A stretch of 64,000 nucleotides of DNA from Escherichia phage 55, in sequence record OQ599310, one strand, 5' to 3'. How positions within the stretch are numbered: the first letter of the stretch is position 1; the number at the start of each line of letters is the position of its first letter. Of the stretch, positions 2,710 through 27,966 are shown piece by piece. Made by a program: the position numbers and the translations under genes. The notes below the pieces were generated by a model. It ran no database searches, was not told the origin of the DNA, and saw only the letters and a list, made by a program, of their open reading frames with translations.

Positions 2710-3870
2710 ATGAACACTTTTAAAATCGGAACGAATTTTGATTTAGCTCTTCTTGATAAAATCGTAGAGCTCAATAAAACCTATCCTAATAGCTTGATAA
2801 ACGAAGTATATGGCTCTACAAGAGAAATGGCTTTTGTAGCAGCCAGACCTGATTTTAGGCTTCCTGACGTTGACAAAAAGATGTTAGAAGACTACGTTAA
2901 ACGTTGTAACGAATTAGGTATTTGCTTTAACTATACACTCAACACGATAAATCCTGGTTCAAAAAGAGAACTAGTTGAGTGGAAGAAGAAAGCTATTCAG
3001 GATTATGTTCAGTATCTTTGGTCAATAGGCGTATGGCGTATTACTATCGCTAACCCTGTTGTTATGGAAATTGTTCGTGAAGTCAATAAAGATATTGAGA
3101 TTGAAGTTTCAACAATTCTACATGTCGATGCTGTAACTCAAATCAAATACTTGCACGACCAATATAACATCAAAAAAGTCTGTTGCGGAATTCATAAGAA
3201 CCGTTCAGTTTCTTTCCTGAAGCGTGCAGCAGAGTTTTGCAATAAGAACAATATAATATTTGAAGTTCTTGTAAATGAGTTCTGTTCTAATGCTGGTAAA
3301 GGGTATACAACACATTGTAGTTATCGTGACTCTTGCTATATTTTCCATAGTACTGATGTTACCGCTGATGATGCTAAATCCTTAAATGGATATCCAATGC
3401 AGCACTGTATTAAAGCTCGTGATACAGATCCATTTAACTGGTTGAGAACTCGTTTTGTTCGTCCTCAAGATTTGAAACTTTATAATGATATTGGTATCAC
3501 TCAATTCAAAGTTTCAGGACGTACAGGTAGCACAGACTACATTTTGAAAGTTCTTGAAGCATACGCTTCTGAAAAGTTTGAAGGTAATTTGTTAGAACTG
3601 TGGAAGCCTTTAGAGACTATTTTCACTCTTGAAAACGAAACTGAGTTTTCACATACAGTAAATATTGAAACCTCTTTGTTAGATGGCTTTTTAGAAAAAA
3701 GGTGGTTCAGACATCCAGATTTTGATTGTGCTAATGAAATCTGTGGGTCAACGTGTACATATTGTGAAAGGTATTATAAACGTCAATTATCTAAAAACGG
3801 GTTAGCAGAAAACTCCATATCTATTATTGATATAACTAGCTCTGATGACGCTTTGAGATACCCGGAATGA
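2710..3870 (+). CDS. Cys-rich protein with divergent peptidase-U32-like motifs (family that includes Fe-S dependent hydroxylases RlhA/TrhP/UbiU-V); function unknown
   Basis: Segments FNYTLNTI, EVLVNEFCSNAGKGYTTHCSYRDSC and FKVSGRTGSTDY resemble the U32 core and GR motifs; assignment is from memory of the family signature and is tentative. Confidence 0.4.
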   Translation: MNTFKIGTNFDLALLDKIVELNKTYPNSLINEVYGSTREMAFVAARPDFRLPDVDKKMLEDYVKRCNELGICFNYTLNTINPGSKRELVEWKKKAIQDYVQYLWSIGVWRITIANPVVMEIVREVNKDIEIEVSTILHVDAVTQIKYLHDQYNIKKVCCGIHKNRSVSFLKRAAEFCNKNNIIFEVLVNEFCSNAGKGYTTHCSYRDSCYIFHSTDVTADDAKSLNGYPMQHCIKARDTDPFNWLRTRFVRPQDLKLYNDIGITQFKVSGRTGSTDYILKVLEAYASEKFEGNLLELWKPLETIFTLENETEFSHTVNIETSLLDGFLEKRWFRHPDFDCANEICGSTCTYCERYYKRQLSKNGLAENSISIIDITSSDDALRYPE

Positions 3871-4106
3871 TTTCTAGAAAAAGTTTTAATTATAAACTTA
3901 ACGAAGAGATTTTGACTATGAAACTGAACACTAACGAACAAATTCTTAAAAAGGCCCTTATGGGCCTGTTTGAAACCAAAGCGGCTAAAGTGATTAAAGA
4001 ACCTGTTCAATTGGAATACTACACTGATGCATTCCTTCATAGTGTTCTTGGAAGTATAGATTCTGAAGCTTTACGTTATATCAACATTGCCAAGAAATTC
4101 AAATAA
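3867..4106 (+). CDS. hypothetical protein (79 aa)
   Basis: ORF with ATGA start overlap to upstream gene. Confidence 0.4.
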   Translation: MISRKSFNYKLNEEILTMKLNTNEQILKKALMGLFETKAAKVIKEPVQLEYYTDAFLHSVLGSIDSEALRYINIAKKFK

Positions 4107-4148
4107 GCTTTATGAATTGAGTATATAATAAATTGTATTGAGGTAAAC

Positions 4149-4865
4149 ATGGGAAAACATAACACAATGAAATATATCAAAGCCGCAGATTTTCAAACCG
4201 CATTTAAAGCAGTCAATCGTGAAATTTTAGAAAACCCGGAATTCGTAACCGATTCTCGTATTGGACGTTGTAATGAAATTGGGTCTATGACAGTAGTTGT
4301 TGACAATCCATCATCATTCAAAATGACCGACCCACGTATTAACCGCATCTCTTATGAATATGCCGAAGACTTCTGGAAGTTTATGATTTCTGGTGGTACT
4401 GATGCAGAAGAAGCGTTTAAGGCATATCCTAATGTCGCTAAATTTATTTCTAAACCTAAATCAGACGCTTTGCCTGCAAACTTCAACACTTTCTACGGTC
4501 CTCGCATTGCGGCCCAATTACCAGCTCTTCTAAAAGAACTTAAAGAGAAACCTAACTCTCGAAGAGTTGTGTTCCAAATTCTAGAAAGTTCTGATCAGGC
4601 TTTGCTTGATTCGGACGAAACACTTGAATATCCATGTACTGACTCAGTAACTTATTATATTCGTGATGGTAAGCTTTATACCCACTGCCATATGCGTTCT
4701 CAGAACTGTGCTGTTGTTATGCAGTTGGATTTTTATCTCCAAGGAAAATTACTTCATTATATCGCTAACGAATGCGGTGTAGAAGTTGGTGATTATACTC
4801 ATACCATGGTAAGTGCCCATGTGTTTGAACGTGATTTTGATTATGTTAAAGGATTCCTTGACTAA
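4149..4865 (+). CDS. 42: dCMP hydroxymethylase (thymidylate-synthase-fold), gene 42
   Basis: TS-family core YPCTD...GKLYTHCHMRSQN with Cys nucleophile; size 238 aa; sits upstream of uvsX as gene 42 does in T4. Confidence 0.7.
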   Translation: MGKHNTMKYIKAADFQTAFKAVNREILENPEFVTDSRIGRCNEIGSMTVVVDNPSSFKMTDPRINRISYEYAEDFWKFMISGGTDAEEAFKAYPNVAKFISKPKSDALPANFNTFYGPRIAAQLPALLKELKEKPNSRRVVFQILESSDQALLDSDETLEYPCTDSVTYYIRDGKLYTHCHMRSQNCAVVMQLDFYLQGKLLHYIANECGVEVGDYTHTMVSAHVFERDFDYVKGFLD

Positions 4866-5764
4866 TGGCTATTTTCCGCGTACCAATCTTGAGTATGCGG
4901 TCTTATGAAACTGGACAGTATGCTATCCTTAAGGATGGCAACTTCCAACTTCATTTGCACCGTGCTAATCCAGGTGATGTGATTACATATCCACGTAATG
5001 CATCTGATATTAAAGAATGCGAACGTCTTTTCCCAGAATTTAAGTTTGTTCCATTATGGTATAAAGATAACGCGTATAACACTCGTAAATATTTCTGGTC
5101 TGAAAATGAATTTGTGGTTGATTCATTAATTGCTTATTATGATTGTGATTTTCTAATCACAGATATCACCGGATATGACGGCGCTTTTGATGTTGAATTC
5201 AATTTCAATATCACTGCAGACCCTAATAAACCACGTTTTTATATTGACGAATTCTTAAAAACCGATATGTTGTCGGTTAATCGTTCACTTCAAACTACTG
5301 TGTTGAATGAACGTCAAAAAGAAGTGCTGGTTAACGCAGGTGCAGATGGTAATAAGATTATCGTAACGCAGAAAGTTATACGTCCTTCCATCATGCAGCG
5401 TCTTGTAGGTGATTTGGCCCCTATTCATCTAGATGGTATTTTTCATCCATTTCGAATTAGTGACCCATGCTATCGTTTTGAACAAGTGGTTGAATGTGCA
5501 ATTCAATTAGGTCAACCGCTTTATATAACCGATCCAAATAATAGTTTCGACAGAAATAAGTATCCTGAAGAAGCGCTGATTCGAATTTTTAAACCAACTA
5601 AAACTGAGTACTATCAAATTCTTAAAGGACGACCGAAGATTCAATATTTCGAAAATCCTGAAGAAGTATTCCATCCAGGTCTTGGCGAGTTCATCTACTT
5701 TAATGCTTTAATTTCTTCGCCGTATAATATACCTAAATACGAAGATGTCGTAATCGAGGAATAA
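4865..5764 (+). CDS. hypothetical protein occupying the locus of T4 beta-glucosyltransferase; candidate DNA-modifying transferase
   Basis: 299-aa ORF, TAATG overlap with gene 42; no similarity I can recognise to T4 beta-gt. Confidence 0.45.
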   Translation: MAIFRVPILSMRSYETGQYAILKDGNFQLHLHRANPGDVITYPRNASDIKECERLFPEFKFVPLWYKDNAYNTRKYFWSENEFVVDSLIAYYDCDFLITDITGYDGAFDVEFNFNITADPNKPRFYIDEFLKTDMLSVNRSLQTTVLNERQKEVLVNAGADGNKIIVTQKVIRPSIMQRLVGDLAPIHLDGIFHPFRISDPCYRFEQVVECAIQLGQPLYITDPNNSFDRNKYPEEALIRIFKPTKTEYYQILKGRPKIQYFENPEEVFHPGLGEFIYFNALISSPYNIPKYEDVVIEE

Positions 5765-5765
5765 A

Positions 5766-6314
5766 ATGGCTAAAATTATTTTAGTAGATGGCCCAGATAA
5801 TGCCGGTAAAACAACTTTCATTAATGACATAATGGAAATTAGTGAAAGATACGTAAAGATTGATTTCCCTAAACGAACAGTTGATGGACGTTTCGATGTT
5901 AAGTCTCGAAATGAAGTTGGTTGTTTCGAAACGATGTTGAATTATTTAGACCCTACTAAGATTTATCTGTTAGACCGTGGATATATTAGTAACTGGGTTT
6001 ATGGACGTATTCGACAAGATGCGGACTCTGTTCTTGATGTTTATGAGCAGGATTATGTTCGTCTTTGCCAAAACCATGATGTGTTCACAATTATTTTAAC
6101 ACGTAACGAAATGACTGAAAGTTTTGAAGACGACCTTATTACTTTGTCTTCATTCGGTTTTAATACAGTCATTTCACATTTTGAAGAGTTTGCAATTCAT
6201 AACAAAATCCAAACGTATCAATTACTTAATCATGATGGTGCTAACAAAGTTATAGGATTTAATGCAAGCGAACGTAATGGTTTGATTATAGAAATCATCA
6301 AATGGGCTCGTTAA
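5766..6314 (+). CDS. thymidylate-kinase-like P-loop nucleotide kinase
   Basis: P-loop VDGPDNAGKTT and LDRGYISNWVYG resembling the TMK DR(Y/H)..S..AYQ motif. Confidence 0.5.
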   Translation: MAKIILVDGPDNAGKTTFINDIMEISERYVKIDFPKRTVDGRFDVKSRNEVGCFETMLNYLDPTKIYLLDRGYISNWVYGRIRQDADSVLDVYEQDYVRLCQNHDVFTIILTRNEMTESFEDDLITLSSFGFNTVISHFEEFAIHNKIQTYQLLNHDGANKVIGFNASERNGLIIEIIKWAR

Positions 6315-6332
6315 GAGCCATTTAAAGTTTTA

Positions 6333-6359
6333 AATGCTGTATAACCCTTAGTATATAAT
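6333..6359 (+). promoter_or_regulatory. candidate middle (MotA-type) promoter upstream of uvsX
   Basis: TGCTGTA (near MotA box) followed about 12 bp later by TATATAAT. Confidence 0.3.
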
Positions 6360-6412
6360 CATCTTATCTTTTAAACATGAGTAAAATATAATGACGCCTA
6401 TGGAAAAATACA

Positions 6413-7585
6413 ATGTCTGATTTAAAATCTCGTCTGATTAAAGCTTCTACTTCTAAAATGACTGCAGACTTGACTAAGTCTAAGCTGTTTAATAATCGTG
6501 ATGAAGTCCCTACTCGTATTCCGATGTTGAATATCGCACTAGGTGGTGCTCTGAATGCAGGATTGCAATCAGGCTTGACTATTTTTGCTGCACCTTCTAA
6601 ACATTTTAAAACATTGTTTGGACTAACTATGGTTGCAGCGTATATGAAGAAATATAAAGATGCAATCTGTTTGTTCTATGACTCAGAATTTGGTGCTTCA
6701 GAATCTTATTTTCGTTCAATGGGTGTTGATTTAGACCGTGTAGTTCATACACCAATTCAGTCCGTCGAACAACTTAAAGTTGATATGACTAATCAGCTTG
6801 ACGCGATTGAACGCGGTGATAAAGTTATTATCTTTATCGATTCAATCGGTAATACTGCATCTAAGAAAGAAACCGAAGATGCATTGAACGAGAAAGTCGT
6901 AGGTGATATGTCTCGTGCTAAGGCACTTAAATCTCTGTTCCGTATTGTGACCCCGTATCTGACTATTAAAGATATTCCATGTGTTGCAATTAACCATACA
7001 GCAATGGAAATCGGCGGACTATATCCTAAAGAGATTATGGGTGGTGGTACAGGTATTCTTTACTCTGCTAACACTGTATTCTTTATCTCTAAACGTCAGG
7101 TTAAAGAAGGTACAGAATTGACCGGTTATGACTTCACGTTGAAAGCAGAAAAATCTCGTACAGTTAAAGAAAAATCTACTTTCCCAATCACAGTTAATTT
7201 TGATGGTGGTATCGACCCATTCAGTGGCTTGTTAGAAATGGCAACTGAAATTGGATTTGTTGTTAAGCCTAAAGCCGGGTGGTACGCTCGCGAATTCCTT
7301 GACGAAGAAACAGGCGAAATGATTCGTGAAGAGAAATCGTGGCGTGCTAAAGCTACTGATTGTGTAGAATTCTGGGGACCTTTGTTTAAACACAAACCTT
7401 TCAGAGATGCAATTGAAACTAAATATAAACTAGGTGCTATCTCTTCTATTAAAGAAGTTGATGACGCTGTTAACGACCTTATTAATTGCAAAGCAACAAC
7501 TAAAGTTCCTGTTAAAGCTTCTGATGCTCCGTCTGCAGCAGATATTGAAAACGACCTTGACGAAATGGAAGATTTCGATGAATAA
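6413..7585 (+). CDS. uvsX: UvsX RecA-like recombinase
   Basis: 390 aa; near-identity over long stretches with T4 UvsX (MSDLKSRLIKASTSK..., FVVKPK.GWYAREFLDEETGEMIREEKSWRAK). Confidence 0.95.
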   Translation: MSDLKSRLIKASTSKMTADLTKSKLFNNRDEVPTRIPMLNIALGGALNAGLQSGLTIFAAPSKHFKTLFGLTMVAAYMKKYKDAICLFYDSEFGASESYFRSMGVDLDRVVHTPIQSVEQLKVDMTNQLDAIERGDKVIIFIDSIGNTASKKETEDALNEKVVGDMSRAKALKSLFRIVTPYLTIKDIPCVAINHTAMEIGGLYPKEIMGGGTGILYSANTVFFISKRQVKEGTELTGYDFTLKAEKSRTVKEKSTFPITVNFDGGIDPFSGLLEMATEIGFVVKPKAGWYAREFLDEETGEMIREEKSWRAKATDCVEFWGPLFKHKPFRDAIETKYKLGAISSIKEVDDAVNDLINCKATTKVPVKASDAPSAADIENDLDEMEDFDE

Positions 7586-7919
7586 TCTCGATGATTTAAA
7601 TCTAGAAATCGTTGATGAATCCCCTTCTTCGGAAGGGGAAGACATTCGCAAAGAACGAGTGTTTAATGAATCTCTTAAAATTATCCGTTCAGCAATGGAA
7701 AATGTCATTCAAGAGATTCTGATTACACTTGAAGATGGTTCTCATCATATAGTCTATATTACAAAACTAGACTGGGTTGATGGTAAAATCGTAATGGACT
7801 TTGCAGTTCTTGACCAGGACAGAAAAGCAGAACTTGCACCGCATGTTGAAAAATGTGTTACAATGCAAGTACAACAAGCTTTTAATGAACGGGCCAAGAA
7901 AAAATTTAAATTCTTTTAA
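7578..7919 (+). CDS. 40: gp40 head vertex assembly chaperone
   Basis: 114-aa ORF starting at ATG overlapping uvsX stop (ATGAATAA); position between uvsX and 41 as in T4. Confidence 0.55.
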   Translation: MNNLDDLNLEIVDESPSSEGEDIRKERVFNESLKIIRSAMENVIQEILITLEDGSHHIVYITKLDWVDGKIVMDFAVLDQDRKAELAPHVEKCVTMQVQQAFNERAKKKFKFF

Positions 7920-7928
7920 GGAGTTATC

Positions 7929-9371
7929 GTGGTAGAAATTATTTTGTCTCATCTAGTATATGACCAGGCTTATTTTTCTAAGGTCTGGCCTTATATGGAT
8001 TCTGATTACTTTGAGCGTGGACCGGCAAAAAACGTCTTTAAAATTATAAAGAGCCACGTTAACGAATATAATGCAATGCCATCTATCAATGCATTAAAGG
8101 TGGCTTTAGATAACAGTTCTTTAACTGAAGCTGAATATAAAGGAACTTCAGACCTAATTGAAAAATTGGCTGATACTCCTGAAGACCATGAATGGCTGGT
8201 TAAAGAAACTGAGAAATATGTCCAGCAAAAAGCGATGTATAATGCTACATCCAAAATCATTGAGATTCAGTCTAATGCTGAACTACCTCCAGAACAACGT
8301 AACAAGAAAATGCCTGACGTAGGAGCTATTCCTGATATTATGCGTCAAGCACTTTCAATTTCGTTCGATAGTTATGTTGGACATGACTGGATGGAAGACT
8401 ACGAAGCACGCTGGCTTTCTTATCTAAATAAAGCACGTAAGGTCCCGTTCAAATTAAACATTTTGAATAAAATCACCAAAGGCGGTGCAGAAACAGGTAC
8501 ACTAAACGTTTTAATGGCTGGTGTTAACGTTGGTAAATCTTTAGGCCTTTGTTCACTTGCTGCAGATTATCTTCAAACAGGACATAATGTTCTTTATATT
8601 TCCATGGAAATGGCTGAAGAAGTTTGTGCTAAGCGTATAGATGCAAATATGCTTGACGTATCGCTCGATGATATCGATGATGGTAACGTATCTTATGCTG
8701 AATATAAAGCCAAGATGGAAAAATGGCGTTCAAAATCCACATTAGGACGTTTAGTAGTTAAACAGTATCCTACCGGCGGAGCTAATGCTAATACATTCCG
8801 TGCATTGCTTAATGAATTGAAACTCAAGAAGAACTTTGTGCCATCTGTAATCATGGTTGATTACTTAGGTATTTGTGGGTCTTGTCGTATCAGAGTTTAC
8901 ACTGAAAATAGCTACACATTAGTTAAAGCTATCGCAGAAGAACTTCGTGCATTAGCAGTAGAATCTGAAACAGTTCTATGGACTGCAGCTCAAGTAGGAC
9001 GTGCAGCATGGGATGCTTCGGACATGAACATGAGTGATATCGCAGAATCAGCAGGTTTACCAGCAACGGCAGATTTCATGTTGGCCGTAATTGAAACCGA
9101 AGAACTTGCACAAGCTGAACAACAACTTATCAAACAAATCAAATCACGATATGGCGATAAGAATAAGTGGAACAAGTTCTTGATGGGTGTACGTAAAGGC
9201 AACCAGAAATGGATTGAGATTGAGCAAGAAGGCGTGAACACCCCTAACACCGTAAATGAAAACGCAGGTGCTCAGATGCGTCAGGCAGAGGTGAATCGTA
9301 CGGAACGCGTAGGTAAAGCCAAAGCAACACGTGCTGACCTAGATAGCTTAGCCAATGAGTTAAAATTTTAA
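7929..9371 (+). CDS. 41: gp41 replicative DnaB-like helicase
   Basis: N-terminus MVEIILSHL..DQAYFSKVWPYMDS matches T4 gp41; Walker A GVNVGKS. Confidence 0.95.
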   Translation: MVEIILSHLVYDQAYFSKVWPYMDSDYFERGPAKNVFKIIKSHVNEYNAMPSINALKVALDNSSLTEAEYKGTSDLIEKLADTPEDHEWLVKETEKYVQQKAMYNATSKIIEIQSNAELPPEQRNKKMPDVGAIPDIMRQALSISFDSYVGHDWMEDYEARWLSYLNKARKVPFKLNILNKITKGGAETGTLNVLMAGVNVGKSLGLCSLAADYLQTGHNVLYISMEMAEEVCAKRIDANMLDVSLDDIDDGNVSYAEYKAKMEKWRSKSTLGRLVVKQYPTGGANANTFRALLNELKLKKNFVPSVIMVDYLGICGSCRIRVYTENSYTLVKAIAEELRALAVESETVLWTAAQVGRAAWDASDMNMSDIAESAGLPATADFMLAVIETEELAQAEQQLIKQIKSRYGDKNKWNKFLMGVRKGNQKWIEIEQEGVNTPNTVNENAGAQMRQAEVNRTERVGKAKATRADLDSLANELKF

Positions 9372-9376
9372 TAAAA

Positions 9377-9396
9377 AGGAGACTTCGGTCTCCTTT
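9377..9396 (+). terminator. stem-loop GGAGACTTCGGTCTCC after gene 41 (weak U-run)
   Basis: perfect hairpin with UUCG loop. Confidence 0.4.
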
Positions 9397-9400
9397 CGGG

Positions 9401-9430
9401 GTTTACATCTTCCTCTAGGCATGATATGAT
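9401..9430 (+). promoter_or_regulatory. T4-type early promoter
   Basis: GTTTAC then TATGAT with about 18 bp spacer. Confidence 0.45.
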
Positions 9431-9458
9431 GAACTTACACAAACCAAGAGGAAACATT

Positions 9459-9833
9459 ATGAATATGTCTCAAGCAATTTTTACTGCAATCACCGAAAAC
9501 ACAACTGTTGAAGTAGTTTCTCCGCTGGCAACCTACGTTATTCTTGCTCCTAAAACTATTGTATCTCGTATGGAAAACATGGGCAAACGTATCGTACAAA
9601 TCGTTGGAGCCGGAAATCAAAAACTTGATTATCTGCGAACCATCAAAGCTTATGAACATTTCCAACTCGAAAAAGGTTCTCCTATCCAGGTAGAACTCGT
9701 AAATGGTGATATCGTTCGAGCAATGTTCCATCATTTCTATGCATTGAATGACCCATCTAAAGCGGTTCGTTTAATTGCATACGACGCAAACCAAAACGAA
9801 ATCAATGCAGATATATCTAAATTACGTTTTTAA
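9459..9833 (+). CDS. hypothetical protein
   Basis: ORF with AGAGGAAA RBS. Confidence 0.5.
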   Translation: MNMSQAIFTAITENTTVEVVSPLATYVILAPKTIVSRMENMGKRIVQIVGAGNQKLDYLRTIKAYEHFQLEKGSPIQVELVNGDIVRAMFHHFYALNDPSKAVRLIAYDANQNEINADISKLRF

Positions 9834-13036: not shown

Positions 13037-14059
13037 ATGGCTGAATGGATAGATAATGAATTTGCTTATCGTGCGTTTTCTCACCTACCTCGTTTTAGAC
13101 AAATCAATAATTCAAGCACATTTAAATTAACATTTCGATGCCCAGTTTGTGGCGACTCTCAGACAGATGCAATGAAAGCCCGCGGATGGTATTATGGCGG
13201 TACTCCAGGTAATGTGCATTGCTATAACTGTCAATATCATAATACAATTTCTGGATACTTAAAAGAGTACGATGAAGAGCTTTATCGCGAGTATCTAATG
13301 GAAGTTCGTAAAGAAAAAGCTAGAATGGAACCAAAGATTGAAAAGGTTCCTGAAGCTAAGCCGGAGCCAGAGAAAAAGACTATAAATTCTTTGCCGTCTT
13401 GTTCTCGTCTGGACAAGCTGCCTGAAGAGCATCCTATTGTGAAATATGTTAAGTCTCGGTGTATTCCTAAAGAATCGTGGAACAGATTATGGTTCACATT
13501 AGAATGGCCCAAATTGGTCAACAAGATTCAACCTGGTACGTATAAGAAAGAGATTCCCGAACCACGTTTAGTGATTCCTATTTTTAATAAAGACGGGAAG
13601 GCCGAGTCATTCCAAGGACGTGCACTTCGTAAAGATGCTCCTCAGAAATATATCACTATTAAAGCGTTTGAGTCTGCAACAAAAATTTATGGTGTTGAAC
13701 GTGTTAAGGAAGGGGACGTCTGGGTAATGGAAGGCCCTATTGATAGTTTATTCATACCCAATGCAATCGCTATTACAGGCGGCTCAATAGATTTAGATGT
13801 GGTACCATTTAAAGAACGTCGGGTATGGGTAATGGATAATGAACCTAGGCATCCGGATACTATAGCTCGTATGAAGCGATTAGTTGATGCAGGCGAACGT
13901 GTCATGTTCTGGGACCGAGCTCCATGGAGATCAAAGGATGTGAATGATATGGTAATGAAAGAAAATGCAACACCACAAGAAATTTTAGAATATATGAAAC
14001 AGAATATTTCAAGTGGGTTGCATGCTAAAATGAGATTATCTCGTTATTCGAAGATTTAA
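13037..14059 (+). CDS. 61: gp61 DNA primase
   Basis: 340 aa; N-terminal zinc ribbon CPVCGDS...CYNCQ; TOPRIM-like EGPIDSL and DNEPRHPD motifs; position next to 41. Confidence 0.9.
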   Translation: MAEWIDNEFAYRAFSHLPRFRQINNSSTFKLTFRCPVCGDSQTDAMKARGWYYGGTPGNVHCYNCQYHNTISGYLKEYDEELYREYLMEVRKEKARMEPKIEKVPEAKPEPEKKTINSLPSCSRLDKLPEEHPIVKYVKSRCIPKESWNRLWFTLEWPKLVNKIQPGTYKKEIPEPRLVIPIFNKDGKAESFQGRALRKDAPQKYITIKAFESATKIYGVERVKEGDVWVMEGPIDSLFIPNAIAITGGSIDLDVVPFKERRVWVMDNEPRHPDTIARMKRLVDAGERVMFWDRAPWRSKDVNDMVMKENATPQEILEYMKQNISSGLHAKMRLSRYSKI

Positions 14060-14253
14060 ACAAGCCCTATAATAGCAAAGGCCAAATCAACTACAGTATC
14101 CAATGGAACAGAAGGAACCATAACACCATGGGCAACTAACAATGGTGCAATCCCGAAGTTCCATGAAATAATGCCACCTACAACTATTGCAGCGATAGCA
14201 GTTTTCTTTTTATTGCCTTTAATAGCGTTGATTAACGATGGAAGTTTAAACAT
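14056..14253 (-). CDS. small hydrophobic membrane protein on the opposite strand to the surrounding early genes
   Basis: 65-aa ORF, mostly hydrophobic (AIAAIVVGGIISWNFGIAPLLVAHGV); fills the gap between 61 and 56. Confidence 0.35.
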   Translation of the reverse strand: MFKLPSLINAIKGNKKKTAIAAIVVGGIISWNFGIAPLLVAHGVMVPSVPLDTVVDLAFAIIGLV

Positions 14254-14341
14254 AATATCTCCTTAGTTACCTATTATTTATTACGCTTTATAAAATTAAT
14301 GGTAGAATTAACTTTCTTATACTGAATTGAAAGGAAAAATA

Positions 14342-14863
14342 ATGGCACACTTTAACGAATGTTCACAACTTATTTCTGGTGTTGATAAAGCAGAAGAAGC
14401 TTATTTTAATGCTCTGATTCACGAAGATAAAGACCCACTGCAGGTAATGCTTGATATGCAGAAATCTTTACAGGTTCGTCTGGCAAATGACAAGCCTGAA
14501 CATAACAAACATCCTGATGAATTGGCTACTGCTGGTGATGTTGTTGATTGGCTGCGTAATCAGAAAGATTATATTGATGATGAATTCCGTGAACTGCTGA
14601 CTTCACTTGGTGGTATGAGCAATGGTGAAAAAGCCGCTAGCTCTGTATGGAAGCCATGGAAAGCACAACATGCTGAATATCGTAATCGTCGTATTGATGA
14701 ACTGTCTCCTGAAGACCAACTGGAAATTAAGTTTGAAATGATTGATATTCTCCATTTCGTTCTGAACATGTTCCAAGGTCTTGGTCTTACAGCAGAAGAA
14801 ATCTTTAAACTTTATTACCTGAAAAATGCTGAAAATTTCGCACGTCAAGACCGAGGTTATTAA
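14342..14863 (+). CDS. 56: dCTP pyrophosphatase (dCTPase-dUTPase), gene 56
   Basis: MAHFNEC...PLQVMLDMQ...ETAGDVVDW...EIFKLYYLKN..NFARQDRGY matches T4 gp56. Confidence 0.85.
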   Translation: MAHFNECSQLISGVDKAEEAYFNALIHEDKDPLQVMLDMQKSLQVRLANDKPEHNKHPDELATAGDVVDWLRNQKDYIDDEFRELLTSLGGMSNGEKAASSVWKPWKAQHAEYRNRRIDELSPEDQLEIKFEMIDILHFVLNMFQGLGLTAEEIFKLYYLKNAENFARQDRGY

Positions 14864-17085: not shown

Positions 17086-17667
17086 ATGACATGTCAATCT
17101 GAACTTCAAGAACGCGAGTATCTCGCAGCACTAATTAACGATAAATTCACTAAACAAGAACAAAACATTCTCTGGGCTTGCACCGATTCTAAGGAAGACC
17201 CGGATTTCCACTATGAATTAGACCATCTTGTTCGTAAGCATATGACTTCTACAGTACCAGTAGAACTCTACCGTGGTGTAACTCCAGAAGAAGTAGAACA
17301 TCTTTCCCTTCTTTCTGTTGGATGCCATTGGTCTCCTGGACGAGTAACATCGTTCACAACTGATTTCAGTACGGCTCGTCAATTCTCTGGGAGATGGGAA
17401 TATCAGACGTACACTATTCTTAGTCTCAGGAATGCTCCATTCATTTTTGATTACTACCAAAACATGGTTAACATTGTACTCGCCGGAAAGAATCCTAAGC
17501 ATGTTATGGAAGAAACGCGCGTTGACGTCCTAGATATGATTGAATCTGAACAAGAGTACATGGTCTCAGGCATCTCTAGATTTGAGATTGTGGAAATTGA
17601 AGACTTAGAATATGACCCTTTATCTCGATTATACAAAATCATTCATTTGAAAATGTTGAATTTTTAG
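17086..17667 (+). CDS. modB: ADP-ribosyltransferase, ModA/ModB family (first of two paralogs)
   Basis: R-S-E type motifs (YRG, TTDFS, E-x-E); order relative to dda matches T4 modB. Confidence 0.55.
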   Translation: MTCQSELQEREYLAALINDKFTKQEQNILWACTDSKEDPDFHYELDHLVRKHMTSTVPVELYRGVTPEEVEHLSLLSVGCHWSPGRVTSFTTDFSTARQFSGRWEYQTYTILSLRNAPFIFDYYQNMVNIVLAGKNPKHVMEETRVDVLDMIESEQEYMVSGISRFEIVEIEDLEYDPLSRLYKIIHLKMLNF

Positions 17668-17724: not shown

Positions 17725-18333
17725 ATGTTTATGCCGTATAACGAGTGTGAAATTGAAGAAATGGTTCGTCGTGCTCAAAACCCCGAATATCAAGATGTAT
17801 TGCAGTACGAAATTGATAGTCAATTCAGCGACATTGAACAAAGTGTACTGTGGCAGTGTATGGAAAACAAGCCAGACTGTATTCAACAGGAGTTAAGTTC
17901 AATCGTTCGTAGAAATTGGACGTCTTCTGTTCCTGAGACAATGTATCGTGGAATCTCTAAGAAAACTATGGCCACACTTGATGATAAAGGCATCGGTAGT
18001 ATTATTAAATTTGACAGAGTAATGAGCTTCAGTCCAGTGTTCGGTGTAGCACGTAACTTTGCTTCGTATAATTTTTACGGAACATTTAATATGTTCTGCA
18101 TCAAAGATGCACCATTTGCTTTCAACTTCCGTGAACATATGCTTAACATGATTCTGGCTGCGCCATCTTGTGAGTTCAATGGAGCTTTCCCTGAAGCGAC
18201 AAGACGGTCTAATGCTAGACTTATATCTGACGAATGTGAATTTATGCTCCCTATAGGGACTACACTGCGTGTAGATTCTATTATTCAAGATGGACGTTAT
18301 ACAATCTGGAATCTGTCTATTGTCGGTTACTGA
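17725..18333 (+). CDS. modA: ADP-ribosyltransferase, ModA/ModB family (second paralog)
   Basis: YRG, S-x-S (MSFSPV), ECEF motifs; paralogous to previous gene. Confidence 0.55.
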   Translation: MFMPYNECEIEEMVRRAQNPEYQDVLQYEIDSQFSDIEQSVLWQCMENKPDCIQQELSSIVRRNWTSSVPETMYRGISKKTMATLDDKGIGSIIKFDRVMSFSPVFGVARNFASYNFYGTFNMFCIKDAPFAFNFREHMLNMILAAPSCEFNGAFPEATRRSNARLISDECEFMLPIGTTLRVDSIIQDGRYTIWNLSIVGY

Positions 18334-26865: not shown

Positions 26866-27966
26866 ATGAAAGTTATGTTTATCCCATCTCGTGCAGTCCC
26901 ATTTAATCCTGACCGTGTACAAGGTGGTCTTGAAGCAGTACATTTAAATGTGTTGAAATATTTAGTTTCTATCGGTGCCGATATTGATTATATTGGTTTT
27001 GATAATGACACATTTGGTGATTGGAAGGTTAATCATCATCCTGTTGGTCATCTGACTAAATTCAGTCTAGGTATGAGTTATACTATGGCTCGTAAGATTG
27101 TTGAACTAGCCGGCATCCATGAATACGATTTTGTTGTTACTATGGAACCGACTAAACTAACCGTTCAGGCAATTAAAGACGCAGGTCTCTCTAAAGTTCA
27201 TAAGAATTTTATGGCAACACCATTTGAACCGGTATCTCGTGGCATTGTTCAAATTTGGGACCAGACTATTCAAATTCATAAGAACGGTGGTAAGAGTTAT
27301 GCTCCTACTAAAGCCTTCCGTGAATTTGAACGTAAATATTGTTATATGACTTCAGGTCTGACTGACAAAATTGATTATGATTATTGGCGAGCAAATCCGT
27401 TGTTTGAAGCCGAAGATTATCCGGTTATTTGTTTGAATGAGAAACCTGAAGTTCTTCCGGCGACTGATCTGATTATTAGTGCACAACGTTATGACACTAA
27501 AATGCGTCGTACTGATGTTGCTCTTGAAGCGATTAAAGCACTAGGCGAAAATGGTGCAGGATACTGTCCTAGTAAATGGGCACCACCAGCTAAATATCCT
27601 GTTATTATTGATGCTCCACACAGTGAAATTATGGAACGTCTTAAAACAGCTAAAGCACTTATTAATACGTGTCCTGACACAGGTACGGTAGAGAATAGTT
27701 CTATTGAAGCCATCTCTAAAGGTGTCCCTGTAATCCAGCTAGTTTTTAAGGATTATCCTCATGCGACATTTGAATACGACCCAGATACTGTGCGTGTAGA
27801 AATTGATTCCTCTACTCCTAAGAAAGAAGTAGTTGCGCTTTACACAAAAGCTGTATTAGAATTCACTGACACATACGAAGCTCGAGTTAAACGTGCTGAA
27901 GCAGTATGGAAGAAGTATAACCGAGATGCGGTTGTTGCGATGTGGGATAAAATCTTCACAGCGTAA
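26866..27966 (+). CDS. candidate GT-B fold glycosyltransferase (possible DNA hmC glycosyltransferase)
   Basis: N-terminus MKVMFIPSRA...GG and C-terminal GTVENSSIEAISKGVPVIQ resemble GT4-type motifs; lies between gene 39 and rIIA. Confidence 0.5.
   Translation: MKVMFIPSRAVPFNPDRVQGGLEAVHLNVLKYLVSIGADIDYIGFDNDTFGDWKVNHHPVGHLTKFSLGMSYTMARKIVELAGIHEYDFVVTMEPTKLTVQAIKDAGLSKVHKNFMATPFEPVSRGIVQIWDQTIQIHKNGGKSYAPTKAFREFERKYCYMTSGLTDKIDYDYWRANPLFEAEDYPVICLNEKPEVLPATDLIISAQRYDTKMRRTDVALEAIKALGENGAGYCPSKWAPPAKYPVIIDAPHSEIMERLKTAKALINTCPDTGTVENSSIEAISKGVPVIQLVFKDYPHATFEYDPDTVRVEIDSSTPKKEVVALYTKAVLEFTDTYEARVKRAEAVWKKYNRDAVVAMWDKIFTA

Follow-up and report, generated by a model that had tools for sequence, protein, structure and literature searches.

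The nearest described relatives of the kinase analysed here are RB69 ORF045c/gp45 (NP_861735.1) and its DLP3 counterpart, gp78, neither of which differs substantively from it. Both published entries consist of a predicted label without an assay. The label of putative nucleotide kinase is already known from papers of 2021 and 2026, with RB69p045 listed as a "Nucleotide kinase" (PMC13326640, Table 1) and described as having "homologs among thymidylate kinases" (PMC8056088). An experimental substrate test or knockout of the kinase was not found in the literature searched, which did not extend to He et al. 2026.

More distant systems offer points of comparison. Thymidylate kinases (TMKs; EC 2.7.4.9, PF02223), such as those of yeast (1tmk), vaccinia virus (2v54), human (1e2d), and E. 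coli (Tmk), have in common with the kinase their fold, size class, acidity, a GxDxxGK(T/S)T P-loop, an FPxR(S)T segment, and a DRxxxSxxxY motif. The window kinase would catalyse the same kind of reaction as T4 gp1 (PF21448), including RB69 gp159, with substrates that probably overlap, since gp159 acts on 5-hydroxy-dCMP (PMC13326640). The 5-HMUDK enzymes and the family studied here are both phage P-loop kinases of about 185 amino acids, both are gene-linked to a ThyA-family enzyme that modifies C5 of pyrimidines, and some members of each are fused to a domain of the HhH glycosylase fold (PMC5889632). They differ in that 5-HMUDK belongs to PHROG 800, is basic, acts on DNA, and lacks the DR motif, whereas the present family belongs to PHROG 761 and is acidic. 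For YorR of the B. subtilis SPbeta prophage (2axp/3kb2), no link to a modified-base cluster was found in this analysis or in the literature searched.

The kinase gene and its modification cluster

The window, a stretch of 64,000 nucleotides from Escherichia phage 55 (OQ599310), belongs to a Mosigvirus, an RB69-like T-even phage. The kinase gene occupies positions 5766–6314 of the plus strand as an ATG-to-TAA frame of 182 amino acids, orthologous to RB69 ORF045c/gp45, and it contains both of the motifs that a sequence-only reading had reported there. It is a real conserved gene and not a chance reading frame, given tblastn homologs in 343 phage records (identity 35–99%) and a set of conserved columns. 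Alignment A1, with 19 family members whose identity to the window protein is as low as 43%, has 41 invariant columns, which include G9, D11, G14, K15, T16, D70, R71, S75, Y79, R113, D122, and D123. The protein matches PHROG 761 ("thymidylate kinase") over its full length (residues 1–179, E = 7.9e-45).

A Shine–Dalgarno sequence, GAGGA, is located at 5757–5761, and the ATG sits one base past the stop codon of the upstream glycosyltransferase gene, with which the kinase gene is apparently translationally coupled. Reading of the sequence predicts a T4-type MotA-dependent middle promoter at 5702–5728 of the plus strand, in the 3′-terminal part of the glycosyltransferase gene and about 40 nucleotides upstream of the kinase gene. 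It is composed of the MotA-type element aaTGCTTtA (5702–5710), a spacer of 14 nucleotides, and TATAAT (5723–5728). Phage SA79RD carries an annotated middle promoter that is the same site. With such a promoter, the kinase gene would belong to the genes of T4-type middle transcription. A consensus scan did not recover the terminator that is annotated 3′ of the kinase gene in SA79RD.

The gene lies in a DNA-modification cluster, as had been proposed, of the RB69/DLP3/HY126 type that yields DNA with arabinosylated 5-hydroxycytosine, but the neighbor taken for a dCMP hydroxymethylase is a different enzyme. The thymidylate-synthase homolog at 4149–4865 (plus strand; Thymidylat_synt Pfam, E = 2.4e-15) is a 5-hydroxy-dCMP synthase, the ortholog of RB69 gp48, and bears the MRSQN (D169N) and N177D signatures. 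The corresponding residues, N186 and D194, are invariant in the ThyA-homolog alignment, A2. 5-Hydroxy-dCMP synthase activity has been shown for RB69 gp48 (PMC13326640), and the enzyme is flavin-dependent with a D169N signature (Lee et al. 2026). This makes 5-hydroxy-dCMP (5hodCMP), and not hmdCMP, the candidate modified nucleotide. Between the synthase and the kinase, at 4865–5764 (plus strand; PHROG 3891, E = 3e-156), is the first DNA glycosyltransferase, an ortholog of RB69 gp46:47, a type proposed to be arabinosyltransferase 1 (PMC13326640).

The remaining modification genes are likewise on the plus strand. The window opens with the C-terminal part of an arabinose-5-phosphate isomerase (4–402; SIS domain, KpsF/KdsD models, PHROG 5670), an ortholog of RB69 gp55 whose gene is cut by the window start. 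It is followed by an ortholog of RB69 gp52:53 at 584–2269, an AfhE-like protein with a sugar-1-phosphate nucleotidyltransferase (NTP_transferase Pfam, PHROG 4098) and an APH-type kinase, the latter with weak Pfam matches, and by a HAD-type phosphatase at 2254–2655 (TIGR01689, E = 1.9e-13; PHROG 1238), which is RB69 gp51/AfhF-like; the roles of both are taken from PMC13326640. Farther away, a dCTPase (gp56-like NTP pyrophosphohydrolase) at 14327–14863 (PHROG 173, E = 1.3e-45) supplies dCMP and excludes dCTP. A protein of 366 amino acids encoded at 26866–27966, between topoisomerase II and rIIA (PHROG 8302), is likely the second arabinosyltransferase by the position and size of RB69 ORF003c, and its location fits the description in PMC13390438 and PMC6024577. 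For the neighboring U32 protein, a PDB sequence search gave no match.

Membership in the thymidylate-kinase lineage

The kinase belongs to the thymidylate-kinase lineage, in which it is small, acidic, and divergent. Its homology to TMKs is significant only with the expanded family profile of 59 sequences, which matches yeast TMK (1tmk; E = 2.6e-10), Aquifex TMK (2.9e-10), YorR (6.7e-10), Candida TMK (5uiv; 7.7e-9), vaccinia TMK (5e-7), and human TMK (2.6e-6), the matches spanning the P-loop, FPxR, and DRxxxSxxxY motifs. The single sequence has no PF02223 match at E up to 1, yields only sub-threshold AAA matches in Pfam, and scores 15.9 bits, over the P-loop only, against the TIGR00041 curated cutoff of 83.25 in NCBIfam. 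With that sequence, phmmer against the PDB returned RecA and thioredoxin noise, and a query stripped of the P-loop returned no matches. Likewise, hhalign of the 19-sequence profile with a single E. coli Tmk sequence aligned the P-loop only. The structural model has the TMK fold, a five-stranded parallel sheet with NMP-binding and LID regions, and its Foldseek matches are mostly TMKs (E about 1e-6).

The motifs agree with this placement. In TMKs, the acidic residue of the P-loop contacts the 3′-OH of the dNMP, while the DR motif provides an Asp for Mg/water and an Arg for the acceptor phosphate. The Walker A motif of the kinase, GPDNAGKTT (residues 9–17; 5790–5816), fits the TMK pattern GxxxxGK[ST] with an acidic third position (G9-P-D11-N-A-G14-K15-T16-T17) and aligns with GLDRTGKTT of yeast TMK in the profile alignment; N12 replaces the P-loop Arg of class I TMKs. 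Among the 59 family members of alignment A3, which reach down to 18% identity, G9, G14, and K15 never vary, and D11 is conserved at 90% or more. By analogy with TMK structures, D11 would contact the 3′-OH. The second motif, DRGYISNWVYG (residues 70–80; 5973–6005), stands at the end of strand 3 and follows the TMK pattern DR[YHF]xxSxxAY, except that its third position is Gly and not aromatic. It aligns without gaps to DRYVYSGVAY of yeast and DRFVLSTIAY of Aquifex, and the same 59 sequences all have D70 and R71, with Y79 conserved at 90% or more.

Between these motifs, the window kinase has about 20–28 fewer residues than TMKs, leaving one helix where TMKs have two. The presumed acceptor (NMP)-binding segment (residues 34–58; 5865–5939) consists of FPKRT, a flexible loop, and the helix SRNEVGCFETML, and aligns with the FPERS motif and FSANRWE helix of TMKs. 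Its residues F34, P35, K36, G41, R42, R48, N49, E50, V51, F54, E55, T56, M57, and L58 are invariant in A1; model confidence is low here (pLDDT below 50 at residues 37–42 and below 62 across residues 31–50). The position of the TMK Arg that binds thymine O4 falls on E50 by the yeast alignment or N49 by the Aquifex alignment, with a register uncertain by 1–2 residues. The stacking Phe of TMKs falls on K46 or V45, near the invariant R48 and F43, also in the low-confidence region. From the alignments, the thymine-binding Arg appears to be lost, and N49/E50 would be compatible with a cytosine-type base. The presumed LID region (residues 112–128, TRNEMTESFEDDLITLS; 6099–6149), assigned from TMK topology in the model, includes R113, F120, D122, D123, L124, and I125, all invariant in A1, with D122 at least 90% conserved in A3. 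In the model, this region with its F-x-D-D-L-I segment separates strand 4 from helix 5 (pLDDT about 61).

The proposed TMK kinship thus survives, the closest homologs not being generic AAA or adenylate kinases devoid of TMK motifs. Membership in the deoxynucleoside kinases (PF01712), which the sequence-only reading had also named, is not supported: there is no E-R-S motif after strand 3, and the closest structure is not a dCK, dGK, or dNK. Distinctness from the T4 gene 1 dNMP kinases is borne out, homology being undetectable beyond the P-loop (hhalign of A1 against T4 gp1, probability 1.8%) and the DNMK Pfam match (PF21448) being absent. Membership in the 5-HMUDK family was rejected: M6 gp54 belongs to PHROG 800 and matches PHROG 761 over 24 P-loop residues only, and the hhalign alignment of the two families does not contain the DR motif. 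In a tblastn search with P0059, a relative of the kinase fused to a glycosylase domain, no Pseudomonas, Salmonella, or Bacillus phage occurred in the ten commonest host genera or 40 sampled rows. Since the synthase is flavin-dependent, a role as riboflavin/FMN kinase was considered as well; it was set aside on account of the different fold of known riboflavin kinases. The motifs of the window kinase are of TMK type.

Proposed substrate of the kinase

Distribution ties the kinase to its two neighbors. The kinase, the D169N-type ThyA homolog (identity at least 60%), and the first glycosyltransferase are found in 343, 342, and 348 phage records, a ratio of about 1:1:1 across about 340 genomes, with nearly identical genus breakdowns. 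Every ThyA neighbor of the kinase that was examined carries MRSxN and D194. The kinase stays in the cluster despite a changed gene order in JS10, Lazarus, Thanatos-2, and a metagenomic contig, and is co-inherited with the synthase and first glycosyltransferase. T4 gp1 homologs occur in 1550 phage records, and the TMK-like gene is thus confined to the 5-hydroxycytosine (5hoC) subset; the gp1 matches include at least three carriers of the TMK-like gene, namely QL01, fHe-Yen9-01, and MD-2021a. A phyletic pattern bound to 5hodCMP synthase sets the kinase apart from TMKs. The trio of ThyA homolog, PHROG 3891 glycosyltransferase, and TMK-like kinase recurs in Pootjesviridae, where the kinase is a distant homolog with AR aligned in place of DR. 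Pootjesviridae DNA carries galactose and glucose, not arabinose (PMC13326640). The linkage therefore tracks the nucleotide rather than the sugar.

The best explanation, with a probability of roughly 0.5, is that the enzyme is a dNMP kinase dedicated to the 5-hydroxycytosine DNA-modification module, predicted to convert 5hodCMP to 5hodCDP. It would be an ATP-dependent deoxynucleoside-monophosphate kinase that phosphorylates the product of the adjacent synthase. After conversion to the triphosphate by host Ndk and incorporation by the phage polymerase, 5hoC in DNA would be arabinosylated by the adjacent glycosyltransferase. K15 and T16 would bind ATP-Mg, D11 the deoxyribose 3′-OH, and R71 the acceptor phosphate, while R113 in the LID may support catalysis. 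The step is one that RB69 gp159 performs in vitro, and when gp159 is co-expressed with the synthase, the 5hodC of plasmid DNA in E. coli rises to form a UV-visible peak (PMC13326640). With gp159 already acting there, the pathway has no obvious gap between 5hodCMP and 5hodCDP, and the TMK-like kinase would in part duplicate the gp1-like kinase.

A less specific function is unlikely, namely that of a generic dTMP or broad dNMP kinase that boosts dTTP for an AT-rich genome and has no specific tie to 5-hydroxycytosine. Many records are annotated "thymidylate kinase" via PHROG 761, and each of the nearest solved structures is a dTMP kinase. A general need for dTMP, however, would not explain the near 1:1 association with the D169N synthase in 343 records against 1550 for gp1, and gp1-like kinases together with host Tmk already phosphorylate dTMP (T4 annotation). 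The score of the kinase also lies below the curated TMK cutoffs, and the Arg that binds thymine O4 in TMKs is not conserved in an alignment whose register is uncertain by 1–2 residues.

Action at the level of DNA is doubtful. The kinase would here phosphorylate, or act in another way on, 5-hydroxycytosine or the sugar attached to it in newly replicated DNA together with the adjacent glycosyltransferase. Such a role could be hinted at by relatives in other viruses that are fused to a base-flipping DNA-glycosylase domain, namely HhH-GPD in P0059 and P0060, with MBD4-like matches at E of about 3e-3, and a UDG-superfamily domain (E = 7e-11) in P0127, whose 1.4-kb sequence context is too short to be informative. 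Two glycosylase-fused relatives (L006 and L014) directly adjoin D169N-type ThyA homologs. The arrangement mirrors SP10 gp186, a 5-HMUDK fused to the HhH-fold aGPT-PPlase, and 5-HMUDK is likewise associated with a ThyA-family enzyme (PMC5889632); the published pathway, moreover, has no unfilled nucleotide-level step (PMC13326640). Yet the fusions are equally explicable as co-packaging with repair of deaminated 5hoC, and the kinase family shares no homology with 5-HMUDK outside the P-loop. The stand-alone kinases are uniformly acidic (pI 4.65–5.83 in all 19 members, compared with 5.33 for E. coli Tmk and 5.06 for T4 gp1) and have no DNA-binding domain, whereas 5-HMUDK of phage M6 is basic (pI 8.66). 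The conserved D11, DR, and Y79 correspond to nucleotide-binding residues of TMKs, and on chemical reasoning a phenol-type OH requires no activation for glycosyl transfer. The final base, Araf-Araf-O-5-dC, carries no phosphate (PMC13326640). In a related and similarly doubtful proposal, the kinase is no redundant dNMP kinase but the stand-alone form of a hitherto unrecognised class of base-modification kinases that acts on 5hoC in DNA or on a 5hoC-derived intermediate. If this were true, relatives would have gained DNA targeting by fusion to an MBD4-like HhH-GPD or a UDG domain, and the kinase would constitute an independent, TMK-derived analogue of the pairing of 5-hmdU DNA kinase with aGPT-PPlase.

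Nor is support of the sugar donor probable, whether by a UMP/UDP kinase activity that recycles the UDP left by the glycosyltransferases or by phosphorylation of a sugar phosphate. Its appeal lies in the apparent translational coupling to the adjoining glycosyltransferase gene, in the prediction that the glycosyltransferases use UDP-sugars (PMC13326640), and in Candida TMK, a profile match that is a bifunctional thymidylate/uridylate kinase. Against it, UDP-Araf synthesis is reported to have been reconstituted with only AfhE and AfhF (described in PMC13326640), and the cluster already encodes an APH-type sugar kinase. For UDP and UMP, host Ndk and PyrH would suffice. A related TMK-like gene occurs in the same arrangement in the galactose/glucose phages. 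The suggestion that the kinase phosphorylates a sugar intermediate is accordingly unlikely, with the C-terminal kinase of the AfhE-like protein present in the arabinose pathway and the Pootjesviridae trio maintained without arabinose.

Very improbable is a subunit that binds nucleotides but is non-catalytic or regulatory, such as a scaffold channelling 5hodCMP in a dNTP-synthesising complex or a modulator of the glycosyltransferase. In its favor, the gp1-like kinase already performs the presumed step (PMC13326640) and the distant Pootjesviridae homolog has AR instead of DR, but G9, G14, K15, D70, and R71 are invariant and D11 and D122 nearly so over wide divergence, and this conservation of the expected catalytic residues is typical of active enzymes.

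Meaning for the arabinosyl-5-hydroxycytosine pathway

The arabinosyl-5-hydroxycytosine pathway was worked out only in 2025–2026, and through it T4-like phages, which are widespread and include therapy candidates, escape restriction and CRISPR. This analysis adds the tight linkage of the triad, the relatives fused to HhH-GPD or UDG domains, and, as suggested by the alignments, loss of the thymine-binding Arg. The kinase is the one conserved cluster gene to which the published scheme assigns no step. A different enzyme, the gp1-like kinase, has been shown to carry out the reaction that would suit it best, and still the kinase gene accompanies the genes of the hydroxylase and first glycosyltransferase at about 1:1. 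Knowing the true substrate of the kinase would correct the "thymidylate kinase" label propagated through phage annotations, and would either complete the pathway, with benefit to the enzymatic production of glycosylated DNA and 5hodCTP, or bring an unexpected step to light.

A divergent relative of thymidylate kinases

The kinase gene, an ortholog of RB69 ORF045c, occupies 5766–6314 on the plus strand and encodes 182 amino acids from an ATG start to a TAA stop. One base separates its ATG, preceded by a GAGGA ribosome-binding site, from the upstream gene's stop codon. About 40 nt upstream, at 5702–5728, is a T4-type MotA middle promoter (aaTGCTTtA, a 14-nt spacer, and TATAAT), and SA79RD, a near-identical phage, has the same element annotated. 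A consensus scan did not reproduce the terminator annotated after the kinase gene in SA79RD.

Both motifs named in the sequence-only reading are present, GPDNAGKTT at residues 9–17 and DRGYISNWVYG at residues 70–80. Single-sequence searches give no significant match in Pfam, only noise in the PDB, and 15.9 bits against TIGR00041, below the cutoff of 83.25. PHROG 761 (“thymidylate kinase”) matches over the full length (E 7.9e-45), and a profile of 59 family sequences, with identity down to 18%, matches the thymidylate kinases (TMKs) of yeast (2.6e-10), Aquifex (2.9e-10), S. aureus (4e-8), vaccinia (5e-7), and human (2.6e-6), as well as YorR (6.7e-10). The TMK matches span the P-loop, an FP(E/K)R segment, and DRxxxSxxxY, with the motifs free of gaps. 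Residues G9, G14, K15, D70, and R71 are invariant in the 59 sequences, and conservation reaches at least 90% at D11, Y79, D122, and N133. An AlphaFold2 model built from 19 homologs (pLDDT 86.5; confidence is low in the loop at residues 37–42) agrees in Foldseek comparisons, at TM 0.5–0.63. K15 and D70 are 55 residues apart, compared with 83 in E. coli Tmk. The kinase is therefore a divergent branch of the TMK lineage, outside the TMK family by curated thresholds. Of the resemblance to thymidylate and deoxynucleoside kinases initially proposed, the TMK part holds by family profile and motifs, at a distance below the curated cutoff. Proof of TMK ancestry at the level of sequence is a contribution of the present analysis.

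The family is small: a large protein database contains 27 clusters at 46–98% identity, all from T4-like phages, and an exhaustive profile search with an E cutoff of 1e-3 yields no more than 309 representative clusters. Kinship with the T4 gp1 dNMP kinase was rejected at an hhalign probability of 1.8%, which bears out the distinctness from gp1 originally claimed. Specific kinship with the 5-hydroxymethyl-dU DNA kinase (5-HMUDK) of Pseudomonas phage M6 was also rejected, as this enzyme belongs to PHROG 800 and is similar at the P-loop only. PHROG 800, the family of this experimentally defined kinase, is labelled “terminase small subunit”, and M6 gp54 (13686–14249 of the M6 locus) bears the same label in RefSeq; the label looks erroneous and is set to spread to further annotations.

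The 5-hydroxycytosine gene cluster

Mosigvirus genomes, among them PhAPEC2, the LF82 phages, and SA79RD, share 98% identity with the kinase region. Downstream are uvsX and genes 40, 41, and 61. Upstream is a block without T4 counterpart, containing an arabinose-5-phosphate isomerase (4–402, truncated at the start of the window), a bifunctional nucleotidyltransferase and APH-type kinase (584–2269), a HAD phosphatase (2254–2655), a U32-family protein orthologous to RB69 gp50 (2710–3870, plus strand), a small ORF (3867–4106), a thymidylate synthase (ThyA) homolog (4149–4865, plus strand), and a 299-residue glycosyltransferase (GT) of PHROG 3891 (4865–5764).

Lee et al. 2026 showed arabinosylated 5-hydroxycytosine (5hoC) in the DNA of RB69 and Acinetobacter phage DLP3 (PMC13326640), superseding an earlier proposal of arabinosyl-hmC for RB69-type DNA (PMC6024577). 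In RB69, the ThyA homolog gp48 is the flavin-dependent 5-hydroxy-dCMP (5hodCMP) synthase, with a diagnostic D169N substitution (E. coli ThyA numbering), gp159, a T4 gp1-like dNMP kinase, catalyzes 5hodCMP to 5hodCDP, and gp46:47 is the proposed first arabinosyltransferase (PMC13326640). As Lee et al. relate from He et al., AfhE/AfhF of phage HY126, homologs of gp52:53/gp51, convert arabinose 5-phosphate to UDP-arabinofuranose (PMC13326640). RB69p045, the kinase ortholog, appears in their Table 1 only as “Nucleotide kinase”, a prediction with TMK structural matches (PMC13326640).

The ThyA homolog of the window reads MRSQN; N186 occupies the D169 position and D194 the N177 position. As it carries this D169N/N177D signature, published as the mark of 5-hydroxy-dCMP synthases and not of dCMP hydroxymethylases, it is a hydroxylase, and the neighboring “hydroxymethylase locus” of the sequence-only reading is renamed accordingly. 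Many GenBank records label such homologs dCMP hydroxymethylase or thymidylate synthase.

The U32 “peptidase”-family gene lies within the 5hoC cluster in Mosigvirus and in Thanatos-2 (8151–9287 of that locus), and is not found in the JS10 or Lazarus clusters. O2-independent hydroxylases are found among U32 proteins, as with UbiU/UbiV, TrhP (ho5U in tRNA), and RlhA (ho5C in rRNA). By this analogy, the cluster protein could provide an anaerobic route to 5-hydroxy-C, as a backup for the O2- and flavin-dependent synthase. Its published label is only “sugar or heterocycle reductase”.

Elsewhere in the window, a 366-residue PHROG 8302 gene (26866–27966, plus strand) is flanked by rIIA and the gene for the topoisomerase II large subunit. 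In location and length it fits RB69 ORF003c, a gene remote from the main cluster that is proposed to encode the second arabinosyltransferase. Adjacent paralogous ORFs at 17086–17667 and 17725–18333 (plus strand) both match the ADP-ribosyltransferase PHROG 832 (Alt/ModA/ModB-like).

Linkage of synthase, glycosyltransferase, and kinase

By tblastn, the kinase is found in 343 phage records, the ThyA homolog at 60% identity or above in 342, and the GT in 348. Genus breakdowns are almost identical (kinase/ThyA/GT: Escherichia 176/176/176, Acinetobacter 57/57/57, Klebsiella 25/26/26, Shigella 15/15/15). A T4 gp1 homolog is present in 1550 records, and QL01, fHe-Yen9-01, and MD-2021a are on both the gp1 and the TMK-like match lists. 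The kinase gene shifts place but always stays inside the cluster in the cases examined, the order being HAD-kinase-ThyA-GT in JS10, ThyA-GT-kinase-GT-GT in Lazarus, and ThyA-GT-kinase-U32 in Thanatos-2 (kinase 44% identical) and in a metagenomic T4-like contig. This roughly 1:1:1 linkage is quantified here.

The trio is repeated in a second phage family, a further contribution of the present analysis. Rhizobium phage RHph_N34 (Pootjesviridae; 3910–7433 of its locus) encodes, in this order, a dNMP kinase, a dCTPase, a D169N-type ThyA, a PHROG 3891 GT (E 1e-63), and a 212-residue TMK-like protein distantly related to the target family (hhalign probability 80%; PHROG 761, E 9e-5). The latter has a GKDT P-loop, as in T4 gp1, and aligns AR at the invariant DR position of the Straboviridae family.

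Candidate roles of the kinase

The kinase is predicted, with a probability of about one half, to be a nucleotide-level enzyme dedicated to the 5-hydroxy-dC branch, where it would convert 5hodCMP to 5hodCDP. The weak point is redundancy with the gp1-like kinase shown to perform that step. The finding is real but not new, as earlier papers describe the gene, its likeness to TMKs, and the part it presumably plays in the modification (PMC8056088, PMC13326640).

A generic dTMP or dNMP kinase is unlikely, though family genes are widely annotated “thymidylate kinase”. The TMK helix FSANRWE, bearing the stacking Phe and the thymine-O4 Arg, aligns with KSRNEVG, placing invariant E50 (yeast register) or invariant N49 (Aquifex register) at the Arg; the register may be off by 1–2 residues, R48 lies next to this position, and model confidence is low in that stretch. 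Within that uncertainty of 1–2 residues, the thymine-reading Arg appears non-conserved, an observation contributed here, and its replacement by a hydrogen-bond acceptor would suit a cytosine-type base, which is suggestive only.

A DNA-level kinase analogous to 5-HMUDK is improbable; newly described fusions speak in its favor. Several family members, ~310–357 residues long, end in a DNA-glycosylase domain. P0059 and P0060 have an HhH-GPD domain; P0065 and P0067 are visibly similar there but have no HhH-GPD Pfam match; P0127 has a UDG-superfamily domain (E 7e-11); and the extensions of P0070, P0075, P0076, and P0125 have no domain assignment. The HhH-GPD-type region matches the MBD4 glycosylase domain in a profile search (E about 3e-3), and the domain may be active, since a conserved D-K-E-L follows the helix-hairpin-helix. 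Four fusion loci come from uncultured viruses (L006 8001–9074, L014 1446–2390, L008 127–1092, and L007 200–1129). In L006 and L014 the fusion is directly 3' of a D169N-type ThyA homolog, followed in L006 by FMN reductase, arabinose-5-P isomerase, and AfhE-like genes; in L008 it precedes a 349-residue protein whose N-terminal part weakly resembles the PHROG 3891 GT. The L006 ThyA homolog (6616–7800) has an extra ~140-residue N-terminal extension, and the NAD(P)H-dependent FMN reductase (9068–9613) fits the reduced-flavin need of hydroxylation.

These fusions beside ThyA parallel SP10 gp186, a 5-hmdU DNA kinase fused to an HhH-fold aGPT-PPlase beside a ThyA-family enzyme (PMC5889632). However, the kinase domains remain acidic in four of the five fusions checked, with all five C-terminal domains basic. 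All 19 family members are acidic (pI 4.65–5.83), as are E. coli Tmk (5.33) and T4 gp1 (5.06), whereas M6 5-HMUDK, which acts on DNA, has a pI of 8.66. Enzymes of the MBD4, Nth, and UDG types remove deaminated or oxidized pyrimidines such as 5-hydroxyuracil. A coupling of precursor supply to the repair of deaminated 5hoC could explain the fusions equally well.

A supporting role on the UDP-sugar side is as improbable as a DNA-level one. DNA sugars in related Pootjesviridae are galactose and glucose, not arabinose (PMC13326640), and the conserved partner of the kinase is therefore either the 5hoC nucleotide or the GT, rather than the sugar pathway. A non-catalytic partner is very improbable. In the literature covered, the kinase is the sole conserved member of the cluster without an assigned, tested step.
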